The notes beneath the pieces are model-generated. The model was not told the origin of the DNA and did no database searches. It was given only the letters and a program-made list of their open reading frames with translations. From NCBI GenBank assembly GCA_949282305.1, contig CASDPB010000128.1, forward strand, positions 51,885-115,884: a stretch of 64,000 bases of DNA, read 5' to 3'. Each line of letters begins with the position of its first letter. The first letter of the stretch is position 1. The position numbers and the translations under genes are program-made. The stretch is from an uncultured Lentisphaeria bacterium. GTDB taxonomy: Bacteria; Verrucomicrobiota; Lentisphaeria; Victivallales; UBA1829. Shown piece after piece: positions 18,803-28,102 of this stretch.

Positions 18803-19405
18803 ATGAAACAGCCGGAAGTCAGTTGGAGCATTCGGGGAGGAGCGGTCGTGAAGGATCTGACGGTTTCCACTTTAAGACGCCGTGTTGCGGTTTCCGCCCT
18901 GAATATGCGCGGACTGCTGGACAAAGTGCGCGGGCTTCCTTTCGGGGCGCCGGTTTCGTATGATGATTTCCGGCGCGGCGGCGAACAGGTGAAAAGCGCA
19001 ATTCTCGGCGCAGTCGCGGCATATTATGATGCGGATGCCGTGCCGTCCTCTTCCACGGCTCTCATTGCGTGGGGACGCGGCGGCGCGTTTCCGGAAAACC
19101 GGCTCTACTGGAGCGACTACGCTGAAAACGGACGTGACGCCGGACGCGCTCATCTCTTTGTCGGGACTCTGCCGACGATTCCTCTGTGCGAGGCGGCGAT
19201 TGCGCTGAATCTGAACGGTCCGGGGTATTATCTGGACTGTCCGCCGGAGGATTTGCGGGAAGAGATCGGGGAGATATTGAGCGATCCGTCCCTTGACGGA
19301 CTTCTGCTTCTGATGCGTTCCGGCGTGAAAACGAGTGTGTTTTACCTTGTGCACGGCATGACTTCCCCTGCGGACGTGAAAACGCTGGAGGAGGCATTGG
19401 AATGA
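18803..19405 (+). CDS. Beta-ketoacyl synthase N-terminal-like protein lacking the active-site Cys
   Basis: LFVGTLPTIPLCEAAIALNLNGPGYYL resembles the KS segment preceding the catalytic Cys, but the ACxSG motif is absent. AAAGGAG lies upstream. The stop overlaps the next start (ATGA). Confidence 0.6.
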   Translation: MKQPEVSWSIRGGAVVKDLTVSTLRRRVAVSALNMRGLLDKVRGLPFGAPVSYDDFRRGGEQVKSAILGAVAAYYDADAVPSSSTALIAWGRGGAFPENRLYWSDYAENGRDAGRAHLFVGTLPTIPLCEAAIALNLNGPGYYLDCPPEDLREEIGEILSDPSLDGLLLLMRSGVKTSVFYLVHGMTSPADVKTLEEALE

Positions 19406-20724
19406 AAATCCTTCTTGCCGCCTCCAATACCTGTACGGATCCTTATCCCGTTTATCCGCTTGGCATGAGCGTGGTTGCGCAGGCGCTCGCCGCCGCCGGG
19501 CACGATGTGAAGCTGTTCGACGTCGCCATGAGCGGACTGGATGCCTTGCCGGAAATGATTCGTTCCTTTTCTCCGGAAGCCGTCGGCATTTCCATCCGCA
19601 ATCTGGATTCGGTCAACAGCCGCACGCCCGGACAGGATTTCCTGCGTATGCCCGTTGCGATGGCGGAGACCATCCGGAGGCAGACGGATGTGCCGCTGAT
19701 TCTGGGCGGTTCCGGCTTCTCCCTTCTGCCGGAGGAGATTCTGAAGCTGACCGGTGCGGATTACGGAGTGATCGGAGAGGGTGAGTCCGCAATGACGGAA
19801 CTGATCTCAGTTCTGGCGCGCGGCGGAAAACCGGAATCCCGTCTGATCCGCGGAAGCGGTGGAGTCCAGAGCGGCGCCCTGTATCAGAAGAATATCCGTG
19901 ACTATTACTGCCGGCAGACTCATATCCTGCCGCTCCAGACGAAGCGCGGATGCCCGTTTCACTGTGTTTACTGCACCTATCCGGCGCTGGAAGGACATTC
20001 CATGCGTCTGCGCGATCCCGTCGAAGTGGCGGAGCAGCTTGAGGCGCTCGCGGCGGAACTGCCTGAGGTGATGTTTTATTTCGTGGACGCGGTGTTCAAT
20101 GATCCCGCGCGGGAGTATCACAGGCTTCTGAAGGAGATGGAACGGCGTTCCCTGAGCGTGCCGTTTGCGGCGTTTCTCACTCCCGGCGGACTGAATGCGG
20201 AGGATCTGGATCTGCTCTGTTCCCGCGGCATGATTGCGGCGGAGCTGGGGATTGACGGCGCGACGGATGAAACTTTGGGCGGGCTCGGCAAGAATTTTGA
20301 TTTCGGCACTGCCGCGCGTGTGTGCCGTGAACTGCTCGCGCGGAAGGTCGGAGTCACCGCCAATGTCATGTTCGGCGGTCCGAATGAAACGTGGGAGACG
20401 GTCCGGCGCGGAATCGGGAACCTGCGTTCGATTGAACCCGTTCATACGCTGGTTTTTTCCGGTATCCGCATCCTGCCGCATACGCCGCTGTTCGCGCTTG
20501 CGAAAAAGGAAAATGCGGTGCCGCCTGACTGGAACGGGCGCGATGAGATTTACTATTATGCGCCCGGCATTGAGCCGGAGCGTCTGCACCGGGAACTCTG
20601 CGAGGGATTTGCTTCAAGTTCCTGCTGCATCTATCCGCCGCACGCCTGCAACGGCTCCCTGAAGGCACTGCACAGATTCGGCTATGCGAACTACCGGAAG
20701 CTGACGGGAGGAAATGCCGGATGA
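19402..20724 (+). CDS. B12-binding-domain radical SAM protein
   Basis: N-terminal Rossmann-like B12 domain (KILLAASN...YPLGMSVVAQAL...) and a CxxxCxxC motif (RGCPFHCVYCTYP). Confidence 0.9.
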   Translation: MKILLAASNTCTDPYPVYPLGMSVVAQALAAAGHDVKLFDVAMSGLDALPEMIRSFSPEAVGISIRNLDSVNSRTPGQDFLRMPVAMAETIRRQTDVPLILGGSGFSLLPEEILKLTGADYGVIGEGESAMTELISVLARGGKPESRLIRGSGGVQSGALYQKNIRDYYCRQTHILPLQTKRGCPFHCVYCTYPALEGHSMRLRDPVEVAEQLEALAAELPEVMFYFVDAVFNDPAREYHRLLKEMERRSLSVPFAAFLTPGGLNAEDLDLLCSRGMIAAELGIDGATDETLGGLGKNFDFGTAARVCRELLARKVGVTANVMFGGPNETWETVRRGIGNLRSIEPVHTLVFSGIRILPHTPLFALAKKENAVPPDWNGRDEIYYYAPGIEPERLHRELCEGFASSSCCIYPPHACNGSLKALHRFGYANYRKLTGGNAG

Positions 20725-21884
20725 AAAAGGTCTGGTGCGTGATTCCCGTCTATAATAATGCGGCGACTGTTCATGCGGTTGTGCGGCAGTGTCTGCGGGA
20801 ACTGCCGGATGTGCTTGTCGTGGACGACGGCAGCACGGATGCGGATCTGGCGGCGTTCTATGCGTCCTCCCATGTGACGGTGCTTCGCAATGAGGTGAAC
20901 CGCGGAAAAGGCGCTGCGCTCCGGCGTGCGGCGGAATATCTTGCTTCGCTCGGGGCGGACTATATGATAACGCTCGACGCCGACGGGCAGCATTTTCCCG
21001 AAGACATCCGCGCGTTCCTGCCGCTGATCGAGGCGAATGAACATGCCGTGATCGTGGGATGCCGGGATTTCAATACGGAAAACGTCCCGGAGTCTAGCCG
21101 CTTCGGACGTTCTTTCGCCAACTTCTGGATGAGGGTGGAAACGGGAATTCAGGTGGATGACTGCCAGAGCGGTTTCCGCGCGTATCCCGTGAAATACATC
21201 GTGCAGCTGAAGTGCATCTCCGACCGTTACGGGTATGAGACGGAGCTCCTGACCCGTTCCGCATGGGCGGGTCTGGATATTCTCAGCGTGCCTGTCCGCG
21301 TCTATTATCCGCCGCGCGGAAAGCGCATCTCGCATTTCCGTCCGTGGCTGGATAACTTCCGCCTGTCGTGTCTGCATACGCATCTGGTCGGTCTGCGTCT
21401 CCTGCCGTATCCGAAAAAGACGCTGGTGAAGAGGAAGATTCCGCTTTCGATCTTCCGTCCGAAGGAGTTGTTTACTGCCCTGCTGAAAGAGAACGCCACG
21501 CCGGAGGGGCTCGCCTCCTCTGCGGCGGTCGGGACCTTTCTTGCCGTGCTGCCGATTCCCGGTTTTCACATTGCGGCGATTGTCTATTTCACCCAGCGTT
21601 TTCATTTGAACAAGATTATGGCGCTTCTGATCCAGCATCTTTTCATGCCGCCGCTGTCGCCGTTCCTCTGCATTGAGCTCGGACACTATTTCATACATCG
21701 GCGCTGGCTGACGACGCTGACCTTCCGGACTGTGGTGATTGAGATGCCGCACCGGTTGTGGGAGTGGTTTCTCGGAAGTCTCCTGCTTGCACCCTTCTGG
21801 GCGGTGGTGATCTGGTTTGCCACATTTGCCGCGGTGAACTTCTTCAAGCGCCGGAAAGAGGTGAAGGAAGGAGGCGGGGCATGA
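20721..21884 (+). CDS. Family-2 glycosyltransferase fused to a DUF2062-like membrane domain
   Basis: VIPVYNNAATV, VVDDGSTD and LDADGQH are GT-A DxD features. The C-terminal ~140 aa are hydrophobic. ATGA overlaps occur at both ends. Confidence 0.85.
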   Translation: MKKVWCVIPVYNNAATVHAVVRQCLRELPDVLVVDDGSTDADLAAFYASSHVTVLRNEVNRGKGAALRRAAEYLASLGADYMITLDADGQHFPEDIRAFLPLIEANEHAVIVGCRDFNTENVPESSRFGRSFANFWMRVETGIQVDDCQSGFRAYPVKYIVQLKCISDRYGYETELLTRSAWAGLDILSVPVRVYYPPRGKRISHFRPWLDNFRLSCLHTHLVGLRLLPYPKKTLVKRKIPLSIFRPKELFTALLKENATPEGLASSAAVGTFLAVLPIPGFHIAAIVYFTQRFHLNKIMALLIQHLFMPPLSPFLCIELGHYFIHRRWLTTLTFRTVVIEMPHRLWEWFLGSLLLAPFWAVVIWFATFAAVNFFKRRKEVKEGGGA

Positions 21885-22774
21885 CCTCCTCCCGTAAAAA
21901 CCTGAGCGATTCGCGCGGGAATGCGCTCGGAATCGGAATCTTTCTTTTTTTCCTGCGCACACTGGGGATCAACCGTGCCTGTGAACTGGTCTGGCTGATT
22001 TCTCTTTTCTATGCTCTGTTCGACCGGACGGCGTGCCGTGCCGCATCCCACTACCTGAAACGGCGTTTCCCCCGCGCGGAGCGCATCGCGATGTTCCGCC
22101 ATACCTGGGCACTGTTTACGAATCAGGGGCAGGCGTTGATCGAAACCCGCGCGATGGGTGCGGGGAAACTGAAGTGGCGTTTTGAAAACGACGGTGTGGT
22201 CCGCGAGCTGATCTACGGGCAAAAGGGACTGATCCTGCTGGCGTCCCACTTCAGCTGCTGGCAGGCTTTGATCGGAGGGCTCGGAGAATTCCGCCGTCCG
22301 GTGAATTTTCTGGTGGCGCCGGACGCGAACCTGAATGTGGACAAGTTCGCCGCCGCCGGAAAACTGCACGTGCCGATCCGCGTGATTTCAACTCTTGAGC
22401 CAATGGGGGGGCTTGTGGAGGCGGCGGAGGCTCTGGAGCGCGGGGAGGCGGTCTGCATGATGGGGGACCGCTGTTTCGAGGGGGAGGGGGCGCATGTTGA
22501 GTTTCTCGGAGAGGAGGCGGTGTTTCCCTACGCCGCATTTTACCTTGCGGCGCGCTGTTCATGTCCGGTGCTTCCGCTGTTCGCGGTGCGGGAGAAGGCT
22601 CATACGTCGTTCACCGTCCGCTACGGAAATGCGATTTTCCCGCAACTGTCCGGACGCCGCCGCAGTGATTTGACTCCGTATGTTCAGGAATATGTGTCCG
22701 AACTGGAAAACATGGCGAATCAGCATCCGTACCGCTGTTTTCTCTTTGAAAATATCTGGAACTCCGGAAAATGA
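21881..22774 (+). CDS. Lysophospholipid/lipid A-type (LpxL/HtrB-like) acyltransferase
   Basis: N-terminal TM segment, then a LILLASHFSCWQAL block at the position of the LpxL HxxxxE/D motif, here apparently with Gln. The start at 21881 overlaps the upstream stop. Confidence 0.7.
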   Translation: MTSSRKNLSDSRGNALGIGIFLFFLRTLGINRACELVWLISLFYALFDRTACRAASHYLKRRFPRAERIAMFRHTWALFTNQGQALIETRAMGAGKLKWRFENDGVVRELIYGQKGLILLASHFSCWQALIGGLGEFRRPVNFLVAPDANLNVDKFAAAGKLHVPIRVISTLEPMGGLVEAAEALERGEAVCMMGDRCFEGEGAHVEFLGEEAVFPYAAFYLAARCSCPVLPLFAVREKAHTSFTVRYGNAIFPQLSGRRRSDLTPYVQEYVSELENMANQHPYRCFLFENIWNSGK

Positions 22775-22862: not shown

Positions 22863-24029
22863 ATGAATGAAGTATATATCAGCGGTGCGGGGTGTATTTC
22901 CGCGGCGGGCGACGGATGGGAGGAATCCGCTTCCGGACTCTATGCGGATGGCGGTGCTGTGCCGCTTCCTCCGTCGGAAAGAATCGGCTCCACGCTTGCG
23001 ACTCCTGTTTTTGAGCTGACGGAATTTGATCCGGGAAACGAGTCGAAAAGCATGGCGTTTCTGCATCATGCCCTGAAAGAAGCGCTGGATTCCGCCGGGC
23101 TTTCCGCCGGGGAGCTCCAGGGGAAAAATGTCTGCGTTTCAATAGGCACGACGGTTTCCTGCCAGCTTAACAATATTCCGTTCTACGCCAGGCTGCGTTC
23201 CGGGACGGTGGACTCCTGGGAGCCGCTTCGGAATTTTTTTGCATCGAATCCGTCGGAGAGCATCCGGCGCGAATACGGCCTGAGGGGTCCCGTCCTGACA
23301 GTTTCCAATGCGTGTGTGTCAGGGGCGGACGCGATTGCCCTGGCGTATCTGAACGTTGCGTCCGGAGTGTGCGATCTTGCGATTGCGGGCGGCGTCGATG
23401 AATTGAACCGTGTCCCCATTGCCGGATTCAACGCGCTCGGCGTCGCTTCGCCGGAGCCATGCCGTCCGTTTGATGAAAGACGCAGAGGTTTGAATCTGGG
23501 CGAGGGGGCGGGAATCGTGATTCTGGAAAGCGGTGCGTCGCTTGAAAAACGGAAGCACCGGGCAAAATTTGTGCTCGAAGGCATCGGCTGTGCCGGGGAC
23601 GCCTATCATATCACCGCGCCGCATCCCGACGGACGCGGGCTTGAGCGCGCCGTGATGACCGCCTTGCGGCTCACGGGGCTTTCCGCTTCGGATATTGCCT
23701 TTGTGAACGCCCACGGGACGGGAACGGAGAACAACGATCTCTGCGAATCCTCGCTTCTGGCGAGAGTGTTCGGGCGCGGTGTCCGCTATCTGTCCACGAA
23801 GGGACGCACCGGGCATACGCTTGCCGCCGCCGGCGCTCTGGAACTGATTTTCACTTTAATCATGCTGGAGCGCGGAGCGGTTCCGGCGAGTTGCGGATTT
23901 GAGGTGAAACCGGAAAACATTCCCGTGGCGCCGGTATCGGAACTGACGCCGTTCACGGGAACTCATGCGATGTCCACTTCGCTGGCATTCGGCGGATGCA
24001 ATACTGCGCTGATCGCGGGGAGGGTGTGA
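22863..24029 (+). CDS. Beta-ketoacyl-ACP synthase (KAS I/II-type, Cys-His-His)
   Basis: SNACVSGADAI (Cys), YHITAPHP (His) and NAHGTGT (His). The start MNEVYISGAG at 22863 is preferred over the long upstream extension. Confidence 0.9.
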   Translation: MNEVYISGAGCISAAGDGWEESASGLYADGGAVPLPPSERIGSTLATPVFELTEFDPGNESKSMAFLHHALKEALDSAGLSAGELQGKNVCVSIGTTVSCQLNNIPFYARLRSGTVDSWEPLRNFFASNPSESIRREYGLRGPVLTVSNACVSGADAIALAYLNVASGVCDLAIAGGVDELNRVPIAGFNALGVASPEPCRPFDERRRGLNLGEGAGIVILESGASLEKRKHRAKFVLEGIGCAGDAYHITAPHPDGRGLERAVMTALRLTGLSASDIAFVNAHGTGTENNDLCESSLLARVFGRGVRYLSTKGRTGHTLAAAGALELIFTLIMLERGAVPASCGFEVKPENIPVAPVSELTPFTGTHAMSTSLAFGGCNTALIAGRV

Positions 24030-24031
24030 GT

Positions 24032-24667
24032 ATGCGGATTCTCAAATGCGCGACCGTGACGGAGTTTTCCGACGCAACATTTCAGGCGGTGCGGAAACAA
24101 TATTCGCTCCGCCGTTCGGATCGTTACACCGCGCTGGTTCTGGCGGCTGCCGGAAAAGTGCTGGACGCCGTACCGGACGTTTCCGGAGATACGGGCGTGA
24201 TTGTAGCCAGCTCGTTCGGACCGCATCGCACGACCTGCGCGTTTCTTGACGACCTGCTGGATTACCGTGAGGAGGATGTGATGCCGACGACGTTCTCCCA
24301 TTCGGTTCACAATGCCGCCGCCTCCTATGCCGCGTCGGCTTTCGGTCTCCGCGGCCCTGAATTCACGCTGACAGGATTCGAGAATCTTTTCTACGAGGCT
24401 CTGCGGACCGCGGAGCTCTGTGGCATCCTGTGCGCCCGGATGCTGGTCGTGAGCGTGGAGGAAAACGCGCTGATGACGGAGGCGATCGCAAACCATGTGC
24501 GCCGGATTCCGCCGGAAGGCGCCGCCGCGTTCCTGGTCTCTCCGGGAGAGAGCGGGGACGAGCTGATTTTTCAGGAGGAAGCGCCGGAACTGACGCCTTT
24601 TGAACTGGCGGAACGGATCAGGAACAATCAGACACCGGTTTATTTCGGGAAAGGAAGAAGAATATGA
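24032..24667 (+). CDS. Beta-ketoacyl synthase N-terminal-like protein without catalytic Cys (chain-length-factor-like)
   Basis: VIVASSFGP...FSHSVHNAAASYAASAFGLRGPEFTLTGFENL follows the KS N-domain pattern, but the ACxS position reads GFEN. The gene starts 2 nt after the KS stop. Confidence 0.7.
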   Translation: MRILKCATVTEFSDATFQAVRKQYSLRRSDRYTALVLAAAGKVLDAVPDVSGDTGVIVASSFGPHRTTCAFLDDLLDYREEDVMPTTFSHSVHNAAASYAASAFGLRGPEFTLTGFENLFYEALRTAELCGILCARMLVVSVEENALMTEAIANHVRRIPPEGAAAFLVSPGESGDELIFQEEAPELTPFELAERIRNNQTPVYFGKGRRI

Positions 24668-24909
24668 CTGCTGACGAGGTGAAATGCGGGCTCCTGCGGG
24701 AGATTTCCGCGATTACGGGGAGAGAGGAGGCAACGCTTTCCGCGGAGTGTTCCCTTGCGGAGAACGGAATTGACTCCATGGGTTTTGTGGAACTCCTGCT
24801 TTCGGTGAAGCGTCTTTACGGCGTGAATCTTGTGGACGCGGGGCTCCGCAGCGCGGATGTGAAAAGCGTTGCCGCGCTTGCGGAAAAAATTTGTGAAACC
24901 GGAAAATGA
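24664..24909 (+). CDS. Acyl carrier protein
   Basis: 81 aa with GIDSMGFVELL (a DSx phosphopantetheine attachment motif). ATGA overlaps occur at both ends. Confidence 0.85.
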   Translation: MTADEVKCGLLREISAITGREEATLSAECSLAENGIDSMGFVELLLSVKRLYGVNLVDAGLRSADVKSVAALAEKICETGK

Positions 24910-26150
24910 AACACTATCTTGACGGCTTTGATTATGTCGCGGCAATGTTGAATTACGACTGCCGGAATACGCCGGGGCGCGGGAATCATTTTCTCGTCGT
25001 GCTGGAGCTGGAAACTGCGCCGGGAAAAACGGAACTGGCGGAACGGCTTGCCGTATTGGAACCCTTCCTGCCGTTCTTTTCCGGCAGGATGCGCCGCAGC
25101 CGTCTTCATGCCGCCCCATACTGGATGCCGGGAGAGCCGCGCGGAATCCGGATTGCCGGGGGAATGGAACTTGGTTCTTACCTGAATACGCCGCTTGACG
25201 GCGCTCTGGAGGTGATGCTTCTGGAACAGGAGCCGCGTCATTTTCTGGTATTCAAGTTCAGTCATCTGCTGTTCGACGGGCGGGGCGCGGAACTGTTGAT
25301 CGAAGCGGTGCGCAGCGGCGATGCTTCGATGCTCGCCGGAGAGATCGGGCTCTCTTCCCCGAAACTCAACGAGTGGGGACACCAGTTCCGCTGCGGGCGT
25401 CAGGTGCAGAGGAAGATGATCTCCTTTGCCGCCGCCGGCGAGATTGCCGGTACGCAGTCGGACGGAATCTCCGCGAACAGGTATGCGCTTCTTTCCTTTT
25501 CACGGGAAAAGACCGGCATGATTACCCTCTGCAGTGATGAGAAAGCCGGACCGTTCCAGCTGACGCCGTTTCTGCTTTCGCTGCTTTGCCGAAGTTACGC
25601 CCGGCTGCTGGATGATCTGCCGGTTCCGGGAAATATCCTGATTCCGATGTCCGTTGATCTGCGCGGGCGCGCCGGAATTGCGCGCAATGCCGTGTTCTTC
25701 AACCAATGGAGTCTCCAGCCCCTGCTGGTGCCGCGTGAATTATGCGGGAATCCGGAAGCGGTATTCGCGGAACTCAAAGGACAGATTTTCGAGAACATGT
25801 CCGAACAGCTTCCGCAGGCGTTCCGTGCCGCGTCGCGGCTCGGGCGCATTGCCCCGTTCCCGCTCCTGATATCGATTGTGAATAAAACGAGACGGACAGC
25901 CTGCGGCACATTCATGTACTCTTTTCTGCCGGAAAGTTCCCTGAGGTCGAATGATTTCTGCGGACACCGGATTCTGAATTTGTATCATATTCCAACCATG
26001 CCGCCCGTAACGGGGGCGGGGGTCTTCATGAACAGTTTCGGCGGTGCGCTGAACGTAACACTGTCTTATCGGGAAGACAGCCTGACATCGAATGCCGTCC
26101 GCAGCTTCATCTCTTCGTTTATATCGTCTTTGCCGAAGGAGACACCATGA
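24906..26150 (+). CDS. Stand-alone condensation-domain-like / WS-DGAT-PapA5-like acyltransferase (HxxxDG)
   Basis: FKFSHLLFDGRGAELL lies about 120 aa from the N-terminus, in a 414-aa protein of C-domain size. Confidence 0.55.
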   Translation: MKHYLDGFDYVAAMLNYDCRNTPGRGNHFLVVLELETAPGKTELAERLAVLEPFLPFFSGRMRRSRLHAAPYWMPGEPRGIRIAGGMELGSYLNTPLDGALEVMLLEQEPRHFLVFKFSHLLFDGRGAELLIEAVRSGDASMLAGEIGLSSPKLNEWGHQFRCGRQVQRKMISFAAAGEIAGTQSDGISANRYALLSFSREKTGMITLCSDEKAGPFQLTPFLLSLLCRSYARLLDDLPVPGNILIPMSVDLRGRAGIARNAVFFNQWSLQPLLVPRELCGNPEAVFAELKGQIFENMSEQLPQAFRAASRLGRIAPFPLLISIVNKTRRTACGTFMYSFLPESSLRSNDFCGHRILNLYHIPTMPPVTGAGVFMNSFGGALNVTLSYREDSLTSNAVRSFISSFISSLPKETP

Positions 26151-27556
26151 ATATCTATGAAACGATCCGCCGCGAAATCGGGGAATATGACGGAATTGCC
26201 GTGATTGACCGCGGACAGGAGTTTTCTTATCACGCTTTGTTTCATGATGCGGATTCTCTGAGCGCCCGGTTGCGGGAGTCCGGCGTTGCCGCTTTCGCTC
26301 GTGTCGGGCTGCTTGCCGATGATTCTTATGAGTATATTGCCGTGAGTCTTGCCGTGCTGTCGCTGAATGCGGCGCTTGTTCCGCTCTCCACCCGCGCCGC
26401 GGAATCGGAACGGGAAAGAATGCCCGGGGAACTGGAGCTGAATTTTCTTCTCGTTTCGGAACCTTGCCGGAAAGAAGGTGATCGGCCTCTTTTACTCGGG
26501 CTTTTTCTGCGTGTTCTGAAAAAAGAGATACGGAAAATTGAACTTCCGGAAGGACGTGTGCCGGCGTTCATCCGTTTTTCCTCGGGGACGACCGGCGGAA
26601 GCAAGGGGGTTGTGCTGTCCCATCGCGCCGTGATTGAACGTACCTCGGCATGTGTCGGGCTCGGCGTGACACGCGGCGAATATGTGTTCTGGGTGCTGGA
26701 TATGGCATTTCATTTTGTGGTGACGATTCTCCTGTTTCTGCGGAAAGGCGCCGTGATCGTGATCTGCGGGCAGCCGCTGATTGAAAAGATGCCCGAGGCG
26801 TTCCGGCGTTATCCTTTGAATCTGCTTTACGCCACGCCGTATCATTACAGGCTGATGACGCATTCGGATGATTTTACGCCGCCGATGCTGGCGCGGACAA
26901 GGCAGGCGTTTTCGACGGCGATGAAACTGGAGACTGCCGACGCGGAGGCTTTCCGCGCGAAATTCGGTCTGCCGCTGACACAGGCATACGGCATCATTGA
27001 GGTCGGACTGCCCTGCATCAACACCTCCGGCATACGGGAGAAAGCGGACTCCGCCGGGCGGATTCAGGACGCTTACCGGATCGAGATCCGGGAACCGGAT
27101 GACAGCGGAATCGGTTCCATTCTGATTCGCGGTCCCGGAATGTTTGACGCATATCTTGAGCCGTTCCGCCTGAGAACGGAGCTTTTCCCGGACGGCTGGT
27201 TCCCGACCGGAGATCTGGGGTATGTGGATGCGGACGGCTATCTGTTCATTGTCGGGCGCTCGAAAAATGTGATTAATTTCGCCGGCATGAAAATTTTCCC
27301 GTATGAGGTGGAGAGCGTGCTTCATGAGCATCCGTATGTCAGAGAGTCGCGCGTGAAGGGGATGCCGTATCCCGGATTCGGCGAGGTGCCGGTCGCGGAG
27401 ATCGTGCTCCGGGAAAACGCGGAACTTCCGAAAGACTGGCGCACGGAGCTCCGGCGCTGGTGTTTCCGCCGTCTTGCGGAATATAAAGTTCCGAAAGATT
27501 TCAGCATTGTGGAGTCCCTGCCGCATACCGCAAGCGGAAAACTGATCCGCAGGTAG
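26147..27556 (+). CDS. AMP-dependent synthetase/ligase (fatty acyl-AMP or acyl-ACP ligase-like)
   Basis: FSSGTTGGSKGV, YGIIE, PTGDLGYVDADGYLFIVGRSK, and the terminal SGKLIR lysine. Confidence 0.9.
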   Translation: MNIYETIRREIGEYDGIAVIDRGQEFSYHALFHDADSLSARLRESGVAAFARVGLLADDSYEYIAVSLAVLSLNAALVPLSTRAAESERERMPGELELNFLLVSEPCRKEGDRPLLLGLFLRVLKKEIRKIELPEGRVPAFIRFSSGTTGGSKGVVLSHRAVIERTSACVGLGVTRGEYVFWVLDMAFHFVVTILLFLRKGAVIVICGQPLIEKMPEAFRRYPLNLLYATPYHYRLMTHSDDFTPPMLARTRQAFSTAMKLETADAEAFRAKFGLPLTQAYGIIEVGLPCINTSGIREKADSAGRIQDAYRIEIREPDDSGIGSILIRGPGMFDAYLEPFRLRTELFPDGWFPTGDLGYVDADGYLFIVGRSKNVINFAGMKIFPYEVESVLHEHPYVRESRVKGMPYPGFGEVPVAEIVLRENAELPKDWRTELRRWCFRRLAEYKVPKDFSIVESLPHTASGKLIRR

Positions 27557-27622
27557 TCTTTTCCGCTTGATTATTGCGGAAACGGAGTTATTGTGCAGTG
27601 CAAATCGAATTCAGGAGTCGGA

Positions 27623-28102
27623 ATGAATGCCAGAAAAACAAATGTGATGCGTCTGCTGGAAAATGCGCGGATAGAATACCGGATGTTTGAATATCCGGTG
27701 GATGACGGACTGATAGACGCAGTGTCCATTGCCCGTAAGATCGGGGAGAATGTGGAACAGGTGTTTAAAACACTGGTAACGCAGTCCGCATCCCATGAAC
27801 ATTTTGTGTTTGTGGTTCCGGCAAATGCGGAACTGGATTTGAAGAAGGCGGCGAAGGTTTCAGGGCAGAAGAGCATTGAAATGCTTCCTTCCAGGCAGCT
27901 TCTGCCTTTGACCGGGTATGTTCACGGCGGCTGTTCGCCGGTTGGAATGAAGAAGCCGTTCAAGACTTTTATTGATGAAACCGCGATTCTGTATGATCAT
28001 ATTTGCGTCAGCGGCGGCAGAGTCGGCACGAATCTGGCGGTCGAACCGGAGACGCTGGCAAAATTTATCGGAGCGGAGTTTGCCGATTTGGCGAAGGATT
28101 GA
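27623..28102 (+). CDS. ybaK: Cys-tRNA(Pro)/Cys-tRNA(Cys) deacylase, YbaK/EbsC family
   Basis: MNARKTNVMRLLE...IEY...; LLPLTGYVHGGCSPVG is the YbaK signature. CAGGAG lies upstream of the ATG at 27623. Confidence 0.85.
   Translation: MNARKTNVMRLLENARIEYRMFEYPVDDGLIDAVSIARKIGENVEQVFKTLVTQSASHEHFVFVVPANAELDLKKAAKVSGQKSIEMLPSRQLLPLTGYVHGGCSPVGMKKPFKTFIDETAILYDHICVSGGRVGTNLAVEPETLAKFIGAEFADLAKD

Follow-up and report, generated by a model that had tools for sequence, protein, structure and literature searches.

Results

The radical SAM gene and its locus

We analyzed a stretch of 64,000 nucleotides (hereafter the window) from the genome of an uncultured Lentisphaeria bacterium (assembly GCA_949282305.1, contig CASDPB010000128.1, positions 51,885 to 115,884), focusing on a gene for a cobalamin-dependent radical S-adenosylmethionine (SAM) enzyme and the genes around it (Table 1). 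The protein is most likely a tailoring enzyme of a compact operon that resembles type-II fatty-acid synthase (FAS) and polyketide synthase systems and is related to aryl-polyene clusters. A preliminary description of this DNA, made from its letters alone, had proposed a protein with an N-terminal B12-binding domain and a CPFHCVYC motif, encoded between genes for a protein resembling beta-ketoacyl-acyl carrier protein synthases (KS) and for a glycosyltransferase, with 4-nt overlaps on both sides. The list of open reading frames (ORFs) and Pfam searches bear out the domain, the motif and their position. Both overlaps are readable in the sequence as ATGA, at 19402-19405 with the gene for the upstream 200-aa protein and at 20721-20724 with the downstream gene, each start being preceded by a GGAGG-type Shine-Dalgarno sequence; Pfam identifies the downstream product as a family 2 glycosyltransferase (GT2) with a DUF2062 domain, as anticipated. 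A third ATGA, at 21881-21884, joins the GT2 gene to a gene for an LpxL-like acyltransferase. The four genes from the 200-aa protein to the LpxL-like acyltransferase are therefore translationally chained.

Table 1. Features of the window and of two related gene clusters. ACP, acyl carrier protein; CLF, chain-length factor; MAG, metagenome-assembled genome.
Feature	Coordinates	Strand	Basis or remark
Cobalamin-dependent radical SAM enzyme, TIGR04072 member	19402..20724	+	440 aa, ATG start; NCBIfam, Pfam, AlphaFold, Foldseek
B12-binding Rossmann domain, aa 15-134	19444..19803	+	PF02310, 67.5 bits; includes the invariant SIRNxD motif
R66 codon, inside SIRNxD	19597-19599	+	aligned with TsrM Arg69
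Radical_SAM core, aa 181-335		+	PF04055, 59.7 bits
CPFHCVYC, the CxxxCxxC motif for [4Fe-4S], aa 184-191 (C184, C188, C191)	19951..19974	+
CLF-like 200-aa protein, predicted half thiolase fold, no conserved catalytic Cys	18803..19405	+	AlphaFold, Foldseek
GT2 glycosyltransferase with C-terminal DUF2062 membrane domain (polyprenyl-phosphate-sugar-synthase-like)	20721..21884	+	Pfam, NCBIfam
LpxL/lysophospholipid-type acyltransferase, likely ATG 21881	21881..22774	+	PF03279, 66 bits
Beta-ketoacyl-ACP synthase with active-site Cys and both His motifs (ACVSG, AYHITAPH, HGTGT)	22863..24029	+
Short CLF-like KS partner, Ketoacyl-synt_2	24032..24667	+	PF13723, 32 bits; alignment
ACP, GIDSM phosphopantetheine site	24664..24909	+
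WS/DGAT- or BAHD-type acyltransferase, 414 aa	24906..26150	+	invariant SHxxFDGxGAE (HxxxDG) in homologues
Acyl-AMP/CoA ligase, probable ACP starter loader	26147..27556	+	AMP-binding and AMP-binding_C
Acyl-ACP thioesterase (FatA/B type), possible releasing enzyme; operon membership uncertain	13359..14129	+	PF01643 and PF20791
RND/HlyD-type adaptor lipoprotein, HlyD-like membrane protein and HExxH-protease-HlyD fusion	14388..18736	+	operon membership uncertain
Oligosphaera ethanolica DSM 24202 cluster	L009 727-11347, NZ_JAUSVL010000001.1
Bacteroidota MAG, flexirubin-type cluster with a TIGR04072 member (408 bits)	L014 5305-18641, JAKPTX010000205.1

Membership in the TIGR04072 family

The radical SAM gene is an intact member of the family TIGR04072, an assignment that we regard as practically certain. 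Its product scores 469.4 bits against the NCBIfam model TIGR04072.2 (rSAM_ladder_B12; curated cutoff 360 bits), and the alignment runs end to end, from residues 2-429 of the protein to positions 1-434 of the 443 in the model. Both domains that define the family are present, the B12-binding one and the radical SAM core, the latter with one CxxxCxxC motif; the protein belongs to class B of the radical SAM enzymes (cobalamin and [4Fe-4S]). The genes that typically accompany family members (KS, ACP, acyltransferases) lie nearby. Models of characterized subfamilies all scored far under their own NCBIfam cutoffs: BzaD (TIGR04385; 156.9 bits, cutoff 450), TsrM (TIGR04428; 114 bits, cutoff 500), PhpK (65, cutoff 600), HpnR (60, cutoff 650), HpnJ (56, cutoff 578), BchE (40, cutoff 481) and the C-methyltransferase of ribosomally synthesized and post-translationally modified peptides (RiPPs; 20, cutoff 282). 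The preliminary description had called for this comparison of subfamily hidden Markov models (HMMs) and had named a firm place in a characterized non-lipid subfamily as the outcome that would speak against a role in lipid synthesis; the scores give no such placement. Its account of a ‘lipid biosynthesis B12-binding/radical SAM’ family, defined from gene neighborhoods and biochemically uncharacterized, proved accurate when set against the literature of 2023-2026.

The family originates from Kuste2803 of Kuenenia stuttgartiensis, which was singled out in a comparative study of candidate ladderane genes (PMC2649909). Two reviews of 2026 still place the ‘ladderane’ B12-dependent radical SAM enzyme under ‘other or unknown transformations’ (PMC12931638, PMC13459092), and genome-mined ‘ladderane’ clusters have been noted across many non-anammox phyla with no product assigned (PMC9902471). 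Our literature searches returned no papers for the name TIGR04072 and no functional study that connects ladderanes or aryl polyenes with radical SAM enzymes or that concerns Oligosphaera ethanolica. The window protein agrees with the prototype Kuste2803 in passing the HMM cutoff, in its two domains, in the near-invariant RGCPFHCVYC and in its neighborhood of KS, ACP and acyltransferase genes; the hosts differ, an anammox planctomycete in one case and a gut Lentisphaeria bacterium in the other.

A full HMMER pass over 1.84 billion representative sequences showed that the family comprises 532 clusters at 50% identity (E<=1e-30). Members only 30-34% identical to the window protein still score above the family cutoff (387-422 bits) and come from Spirochaetota, Bacteroidota, Thermodesulfobacteriota, Syntrophaceae and other deltaproteobacterial MAGs, and relatives from Nitrospirota and Anaerolineae fall slightly under it. 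The nearest relatives are found in Lentisphaeria MAGs (92% and 89% identity), and the nearest cultured source of an orthologue is O. ethanolica DSM 24202 (49% identity). The sequence is present in chicken, bovine, pig and other gut metagenome runs; the host is an animal-gut Lentisphaeria bacterium.

Predicted structure and active-site residues

The AlphaFold model of the radical SAM protein, built with 73 family sequences as input, has a mean predicted local distance difference test score (pLDDT) of 91.7 and a predicted template modeling score of 0.90. The three cysteines of the cluster motif are the only invariant ones of the 440-residue protein in the 73-sequence family alignment. When the model was compared with the PDB using Foldseek, TsrM (6wte/6wtf) was the top match by a wide margin (query-normalized template modeling (TM) score 0.83, E 1e-26), followed by MgmA, CysS, AprD4, TokK and OxsB at TM-scores of 0.6-0.7, and a search of PDB sequences with the family profile also retrieved TsrM (5e-50). 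TsrM, a tryptophan 2-C-methyltransferase, is thus the closest solved structure, with a common lower-axial Arg and a common arrangement of B12 domain and partial TIM barrel. It differs in being only 22-24% identical and longer (575 versus 440 residues, the window protein being much shorter at the C-terminus) and in belonging to a thiopeptide context, in contrast to the lipid context seen here. Among models of characterized enzymes, BzaD scored best with the window protein as well as with every distant family member tested (141-200 bits), always well under its cutoff of 450 bits, and there are no bza genes near the radical SAM gene of the window.

Residue equivalences to TsrM were counted through HMMER sequence and profile alignments rather than on a superposed cofactor-bound structure. 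On this basis R66 of the SIRNxD motif corresponds to TsrM Arg69, Y193 (CxYCxY, just after the cluster motif) to Glu236 and V231 (DxVFN) to Glu273. R66 and Y193 are invariant in the 73 family sequences and likewise in distant members from other phyla, and the position of Glu273 is always occupied by V, I, A or T in members of about 30% identity from eight other phylum-level lineages. In TsrM, Arg69 lies beneath the corrin and Glu273 is the fourth ligand of the iron-sulfur cluster (PMC12931638). According to the same review, hydrophilic lower-axial residues (Arg69 in TsrM; water/Asn186 in OxsB) mark enzymes that do not carry out radical methylation, radical methylases having a hydrophobic residue there (Trp76 in TokK, Leu322 in Mmp10); between cobalamin and cluster, radical methylases have an aromatic or hydrophobic residue and TsrM has Glu236; and BzaD is a likely Csp2-methylase, ‘reminiscent of TsrM’ (PMC12931638).

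When judged by these traits, the family is of mixed character. R66 supplies the Arg below the cobalt that is typical of TsrM, and the hydrophobic residue under the corrin that distinguishes radical sp3 methylases is therefore absent from the alignment, its place being taken by the invariant Arg. The Glu273 iron ligand, which is the basis of the non-radical mechanism of TsrM, and Glu236 are both replaced, as Val/Ile (V231 in the window protein) and Tyr stand in their positions in TIGR04072; by alignment, the family thus shares with radical sp3 methylases a free unique iron and an aromatic residue between cobalamin and cluster. Normal cleavage of SAM is likely, since the cluster-capping Glu273 has given way to Val/Ile and Glu236 to an invariant Tyr. 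TIGR04072 would accordingly be a hybrid, in which a TsrM-like cobalamin pocket is combined with an iron-sulfur site at which SAM should be able to bind and be cleaved.

The operon in the window

Downstream of the four chained genes, an 88-nt gap separates the LpxL-like gene from the KS gene, and ORF coordinates show that the CLF, ACP, 414-aa protein and ligase genes are also joined by ATGA. The start of the LpxL-like gene at ATG 21881 was read both from the sequence and from the starts of tblastn alignments; the likely start of the KS gene, 22863, is M62 of an ORF that opens at 22680. The 414-aa protein has no direct match in Pfam, NCBIfam or the PDB (phmmer). Eleven of its 19 homologues carry PF06974, the C-terminal WS/DGAT domain, and its family profile matches the acetyltransferase Tri3 (3fot) with the HxxxDG regions aligned; we predict from these sequence matches that it is an HxxxD-type acyltransferase.

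The 200-aa protein encoded directly upstream of the radical SAM gene has no Pfam or NCBIfam match even at E<=1, its profile retrieves no PDB sequence, and only 16 homologues are detectable. Its AlphaFold model (pLDDT 84.9) matches only KS and CLF proteins of the thiolase fold in Foldseek searches, including ApeC and the ishigamide CLF (TM-scores 0.4-0.5, best E 2e-5). Alignment with the CLF of the cluster by hhalign gave a probability of only 4.5%, the aligned segment being the topologically expected one. The single invariant cysteine, C129, precedes a conserved GP, and there is no conserved Cys after the GP, where the KS nucleophile lies. The earlier label ‘KS-like’ for this neighbor can be kept at the level of the fold only, as the TM-scores are modest; it finds no backing in any sequence-family match or in a conserved nucleophile Cys. 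As modeled, the protein appears to be half-size and CLF-like. In other Lentisphaeria (L003, L004, L005, L009) the gene for a 370-aa KS, which is absent from the window, directly precedes that of the 200-aa homologue, which is therefore a CLF-like partner of the KS in those genomes. Intact and still coupled to the radical SAM gene despite loss of that KS, the window protein may have acquired a new role in partnering the radical SAM enzyme or the remaining KS.

The products of the three genes upstream of the 200-aa protein are an adaptor lipoprotein of the RND/HlyD type (TIGR01730, 145 bits), a HlyD-like membrane protein of 465 aa and a 721-aa protein in which an HExxH (HELAHG) intramembrane metalloprotease is joined to a C-terminal HlyD domain. 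Among related loci, this trio is common only to the window and to L001, the locus of the 92%-identical relative; its position is taken in other Lentisphaeria by genes for LolA, an MMPL transporter, a 4HBT thioesterase and a KS. The trio may be an export module that replaces the LolA/MMPL genes of related clusters.

Expression and composition provide little further definition of the operon. A scan for promoters and terminators between 13000 and 28500 yielded counts that did not rise above those of shuffled controls (8 vs 6.5 and 17 vs 19.2, respectively). One promoter-like site (18754-18781) lies in the 66-nt gap ahead of the 200-aa gene; it is not counted as evidence. The only metatranscriptome with related sequence, from chicken gut, contains short low-depth contigs, 90-95% identical and scattered over 15.9-27 kb, the radical SAM gene included; these lend weak support to the view that a related strain transcribes the cluster, being too thin to define an operon and possibly reflecting DNA carry-over. 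At 0.54-0.59, the GC content of the operon resembles that found elsewhere in the window and therefore gives no pointer to recent horizontal transfer. Housekeeping genes flank the operon: that for leucyl-tRNA synthetase (10706-13354) stops 5 nt short of the start of the acyl-ACP thioesterase gene, and one for a YbaK/aminoacyl-tRNA-editing-domain protein (27593-28102) follows the ligase gene.

Related loci and gene fusions

The gene order CLF-like protein, radical SAM enzyme, GT2-DUF2062, LpxL-like acyltransferase, KS, CLF is kept in all five of the longer Lentisphaeria loci, including that of O. ethanolica, and within Lentisphaeria the GT2-DUF2062 gene always comes immediately after the radical SAM gene. 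The O. ethanolica cluster contains additional genes for an acyl-AMP ligase, LolA, an MMPL transporter, a 4HBT thioesterase, a first KS, a ketoreductase (KR) and a phytoene-desaturase-like flavoprotein. Three of its genes encode radical SAM enzymes, namely one of the SPASM type, a divergent B12-binding one of 425 residues that passed no NCBIfam cutoff, and the TIGR04072 orthologue, and its gene inventory as a whole is of the Kuenenia/Desulfotalea type. A rumen Lentisphaeria locus (L005) combines the MMPL/4HBT/KS block with the ACP, WS/DGAT-like and ligase block of the window. Deltaproteobacterial members of the family lie in clusters of KS, KR and radical SAM genes. In two MAGs of Syntrophaceae/deltaproteobacterial origin (L010 4822-12450, L008 6789-12150), a polysaccharide deacetylase gene follows the family gene instead of GT2; in L010 it is followed by two small radical SAM genes and two KS genes, which echoes the Kuenenia/Desulfotalea layout described in 2009.

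In a flexirubin-type cluster of a Bacteroidota MAG (L014), the TIGR04072 gene is flanked by an LpxL-like gene and a 4HBT thioesterase gene, and the cluster also contains a KR, three KS and two ACP genes along with genes for LolA, a FabA-like protein, GT2 and MMPL. A score of 775 bits places its tyrosine ammonia-lyase above the cutoff of the FlxA model (700). No class-I methyltransferase was recognized among the scanned ORFs of this cluster, in which two ORFs matched no model and several were left unscanned. Methylation of the aryl ring could fall to the radical SAM enzyme in this cluster, because the cluster is FlxA-positive and no class-I methyltransferase was recognized among its scanned ORFs.

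Natural fusions link the family to the same kinds of enzymes. Each of three metagenomic proteins joins a full TIGR04072 domain (409-430 bits) to another enzyme: P0214 has an LpxL-type acyltransferase at its N-terminus, P0207 a 4HBT thioesterase at its C-terminus and P0204 a SPASM radical SAM protein at its N-terminus. Assembly or gene-calling artefacts are possible. The fusion partners are the same genes that are seen as neighbors elsewhere, which supports a functional link to the handling of acyl thioesters.

Several companion genes of these relatives are missing from the window. Using the L009 and L005 homologues as queries, tblastn searches of the 64-kb window found no MMPL, LolA, 4HBT or first KS gene and no second B12-dependent radical SAM, SPASM radical SAM, KR or phytoene-desaturase-like gene, and no FabZ-like domain was detected with Pfam or NCBIfam in any cluster protein scanned. 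We therefore dropped the idea that the window contains a full cluster of the aryl-polyene or ladderane type, its companion genes having no tblastn match in the 64 kb.

The ladderane-candidate cluster of anammox bacteria has genes for amxACP, amxFabZ, a phytoene-desaturase-like enzyme and FabF homologues beside the B12-dependent radical SAM gene, and of this inventory the window shares only KS, CLF and ACP. Phytoene-desaturase-like, FabZ-like and additional radical SAM genes are found in the anammox, Desulfotalea and Oligosphaera clusters, in contrast to the window operon, which has none of them. More parts are held in common with the aryl-polyene and flexirubin (Ape, Flx) systems, namely the KS with a short CLF, the dedicated ACP, the acyl-AMP ligase, the LpxL-type acyltransferase and GT2. 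Further links are ApeC as one of the structures matched by the model of the 200-aa protein, the family member inside an FlxA-positive cluster, and the LolA, MMPL and 4HBT genes that Lentisphaeria relatives add; the KR, dehydratase (DH), LolA, MMPL and 4HBT components of these systems are all missing from the window and present in relatives. The characterized enterobacterial aryl-polyene pathway uses a class-I methyltransferase, ApeB, and to our knowledge includes no radical SAM enzyme. The window operon is a stripped-down version of the related clusters, and its likely product is a glycolipid.

Discussion

Proposed function

We propose that the radical SAM protein uses cobalamin to C-methylate an acyl or aryl chain bound to the ACP, acting possibly at an sp2 carbon, and give this proposal as a whole an even chance of being correct. 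Its parts differ in strength. The substrate is probably an acyl- or aryl-ACP or a lipid. This part had already been put forward in the preliminary description, on the grounds of gene position, and is now strengthened by the conserved synteny, by the natural fusions to LpxL-type and 4HBT enzymes and by the tight translational coupling. That the reaction is a methylation we hold to be evenly balanced, and an sp2 carbon (of an aryl head group or of an enoyl/polyene chain) as the site of methylation is put forward tentatively. Such a target appears likelier than an unactivated sp3 carbon because the TsrM-type Arg is invariant, because the nearest characterized enzymes, BzaD and TsrM, are Csp2-methylases, and because of the flexirubin context.

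The pathway might then proceed as follows. The acyl-AMP ligase would put a carboxylic-acid starter on the dedicated ACP, and the KS/CLF pair would lengthen the chain with malonyl units. The radical SAM enzyme would modify the chain either before it leaves the ACP or as the LpxL-type acyltransferase receives it, and the WS/DGAT-like and LpxL-like acyltransferases together with GT2-DUF2062 would incorporate it in a glycolipid. As for the chemistry, one SAM would methylate cob(I)alamin. A second SAM probably binds to the unique iron, because the cluster-capping Glu of TsrM is replaced by Val/Ile, and its cleavage to a 5'-deoxyadenosyl radical would activate the substrate.

Several observations weigh against this proposal. 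The 64-kb window has no KR, no DH and no enzyme that forms an aromatic acid, so that this locus does not itself demonstrate an aryl or polyene substrate. The matches of the ligase in NCBIfam, all of them below cutoff, are to long-chain-fatty-acid ligases (the best), MenE and benzoate-CoA-ligase-like models. The distant family members of L006, L012 and L015 adjoin genes that are not obviously related to lipids. A hydrophilic lower-axial Arg fits enzymes that do not methylate by a radical route, such as TsrM and OxsB (PMC12931638), and hence also a non-methylating role of the cobalamin. The equivalences of active-site residues are those of sequence and profile alignments. Finally, no activity has been reported for any TIGR04072 member, none having been assayed; expression of the anammox homologue failed, and the anammox bacteria are without genetics.

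Alternative reactions and substrates

The residue comparison reduces only a little the choice among methylation, cyclization and coupling, the reactions already envisaged in the preliminary description. Class-B radical methylation of an unactivated sp3 carbon, in which the 5'-deoxyadenosyl radical abstracts hydrogen from a saturated acyl chain and methylcobalamin supplies the methyl group of a mid-chain or sub-terminal branch, seems to us unlikely: the lower-axial residue is an invariant Arg where radical sp3 methylases have Trp or Leu, the nearest named families (BzaD, TsrM) are Csp2-methylases, and family members occur in flexirubin- and aryl-polyene-type clusters. It draws nonetheless on the fact that most characterized B12-dependent radical SAM enzymes are C-methylases, and it agrees with the lack of TsrM Glu273 in the family and with an aromatic residue, Y193, between cobalamin and cluster, as in Mmp10 and TokK; the chain could be saturated if housekeeping FAS enzymes act on it, there being no KR or DH in the window cluster, and a fatty-acid ligase is the best match of the ligase. 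The hydrophilic lower-axial residue, tied to the absence of radical methylation (PMC12931638), is also compatible with radical chemistry of the non-methylating kind that has been proposed for ladderane synthesis (C-C bond formation, cyclization or rearrangement of the acyl chain), the cobalamin being an electron sink or a relay for the radical, as it is in OxsB or BchE. We consider this improbable, and equally doubtful its specific form, in which the 5'-deoxyadenosyl radical and cobalamin bring about ring closure or chain coupling on the ACP-bound chain with no methylation. The family does take its name from the anammox ladderane-candidate cluster, and the KS and ACP match models for the biosynthesis of cispentacin, a cyclopentane amino acid, below cutoff (AmcF, 217 bits with a cutoff of 325, and weakly AmcB). 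Against these points, only anammox bacteria are known to contain ladderanes or any other carbocyclic lipid, and yet the family extends over 532 clusters and many phyla; phytoene-desaturase-like and further radical SAM genes, present in the anammox-type and Oligosphaera clusters, are missing from the window; and in sequence and fold the protein is nearest to methylases.

A different substrate has also to be considered. The constant position of GT2-DUF2062 directly after the radical SAM gene in Lentisphaeria, and of a polysaccharide deacetylase gene after it in the deltaproteobacterial loci, might indicate a sugar or head group supplied by GT2-DUF2062, on which the enzyme would act in the manner of GenK and Fom3-type enzymes on carbohydrates and small polar substrates. 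The fusions, however, are to an acyltransferase and a thioesterase and not to carbohydrate enzymes, and in Bacteroidota and at locus L007 the neighbor is LpxL, with GT2 far off or absent, which makes a sugar substrate very unlikely. Still further from the lipid genes, the enzyme might be a RiPP C-methyltransferase that acts together with the upstream HExxH protease-HlyD fusion and the HlyD adaptors, the lipid genes being unrelated. B12-dependent radical SAM enzymes do methylate RiPPs, and the 721-aa fusion matches the model of the daptide intramembrane metalloprotease (150 bits, cutoff 300) and the YydH/LiaK model. The RiPP C-methyltransferase model, however, gave only 20 bits with a cutoff of 282, the 258-nt gap at 14130-14387 holds no precursor-like ORF, the protease/HlyD trio is missing from every other locus with the radical SAM-GT2-LpxL-KS-CLF order save the 92%-identical L001, and both neighbors to which the radical SAM gene is translationally coupled are lipid genes. 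On these four grounds we rejected the RiPP reading as hardly credible.

Significance

What is new in this locus is not the gene itself but the minimal operon, the cultured relative and the residue-level hypothesis. TIGR04072 is among the larger cobalamin-dependent radical SAM families without an assigned reaction, and every proposal for ladderane biosynthesis relies on it. The operon of the window has one KS/CLF pair, one ACP, one loading ligase and no other radical SAM enzyme, and the single ACP, ligase and radical SAM enzyme therefore leave fewer possible substrates for in vitro work. O. ethanolica DSM 24202, with the same gene order, offers a tractable cultured relative for lipidomics and isotope labeling. 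The TsrM-type Arg without the cluster-capping Glu, along with the flexirubin and fusion contexts, leads to the falsifiable hypothesis that the family C-methylates an ACP-bound aryl or enoyl chain. Operon, cultured relative and residue pattern with its contexts also suggest that the label ‘ladderane’, as applied by genome-mining tools to non-anammox clusters, is a misnomer. If, instead, the enzyme forms C-C bonds, gut Lentisphaeria would make an unrecognized carbocyclic or cross-linked glycolipid, and this nine-gene operon would be the simplest system for the proposed, never shown, ladderane chemistry.

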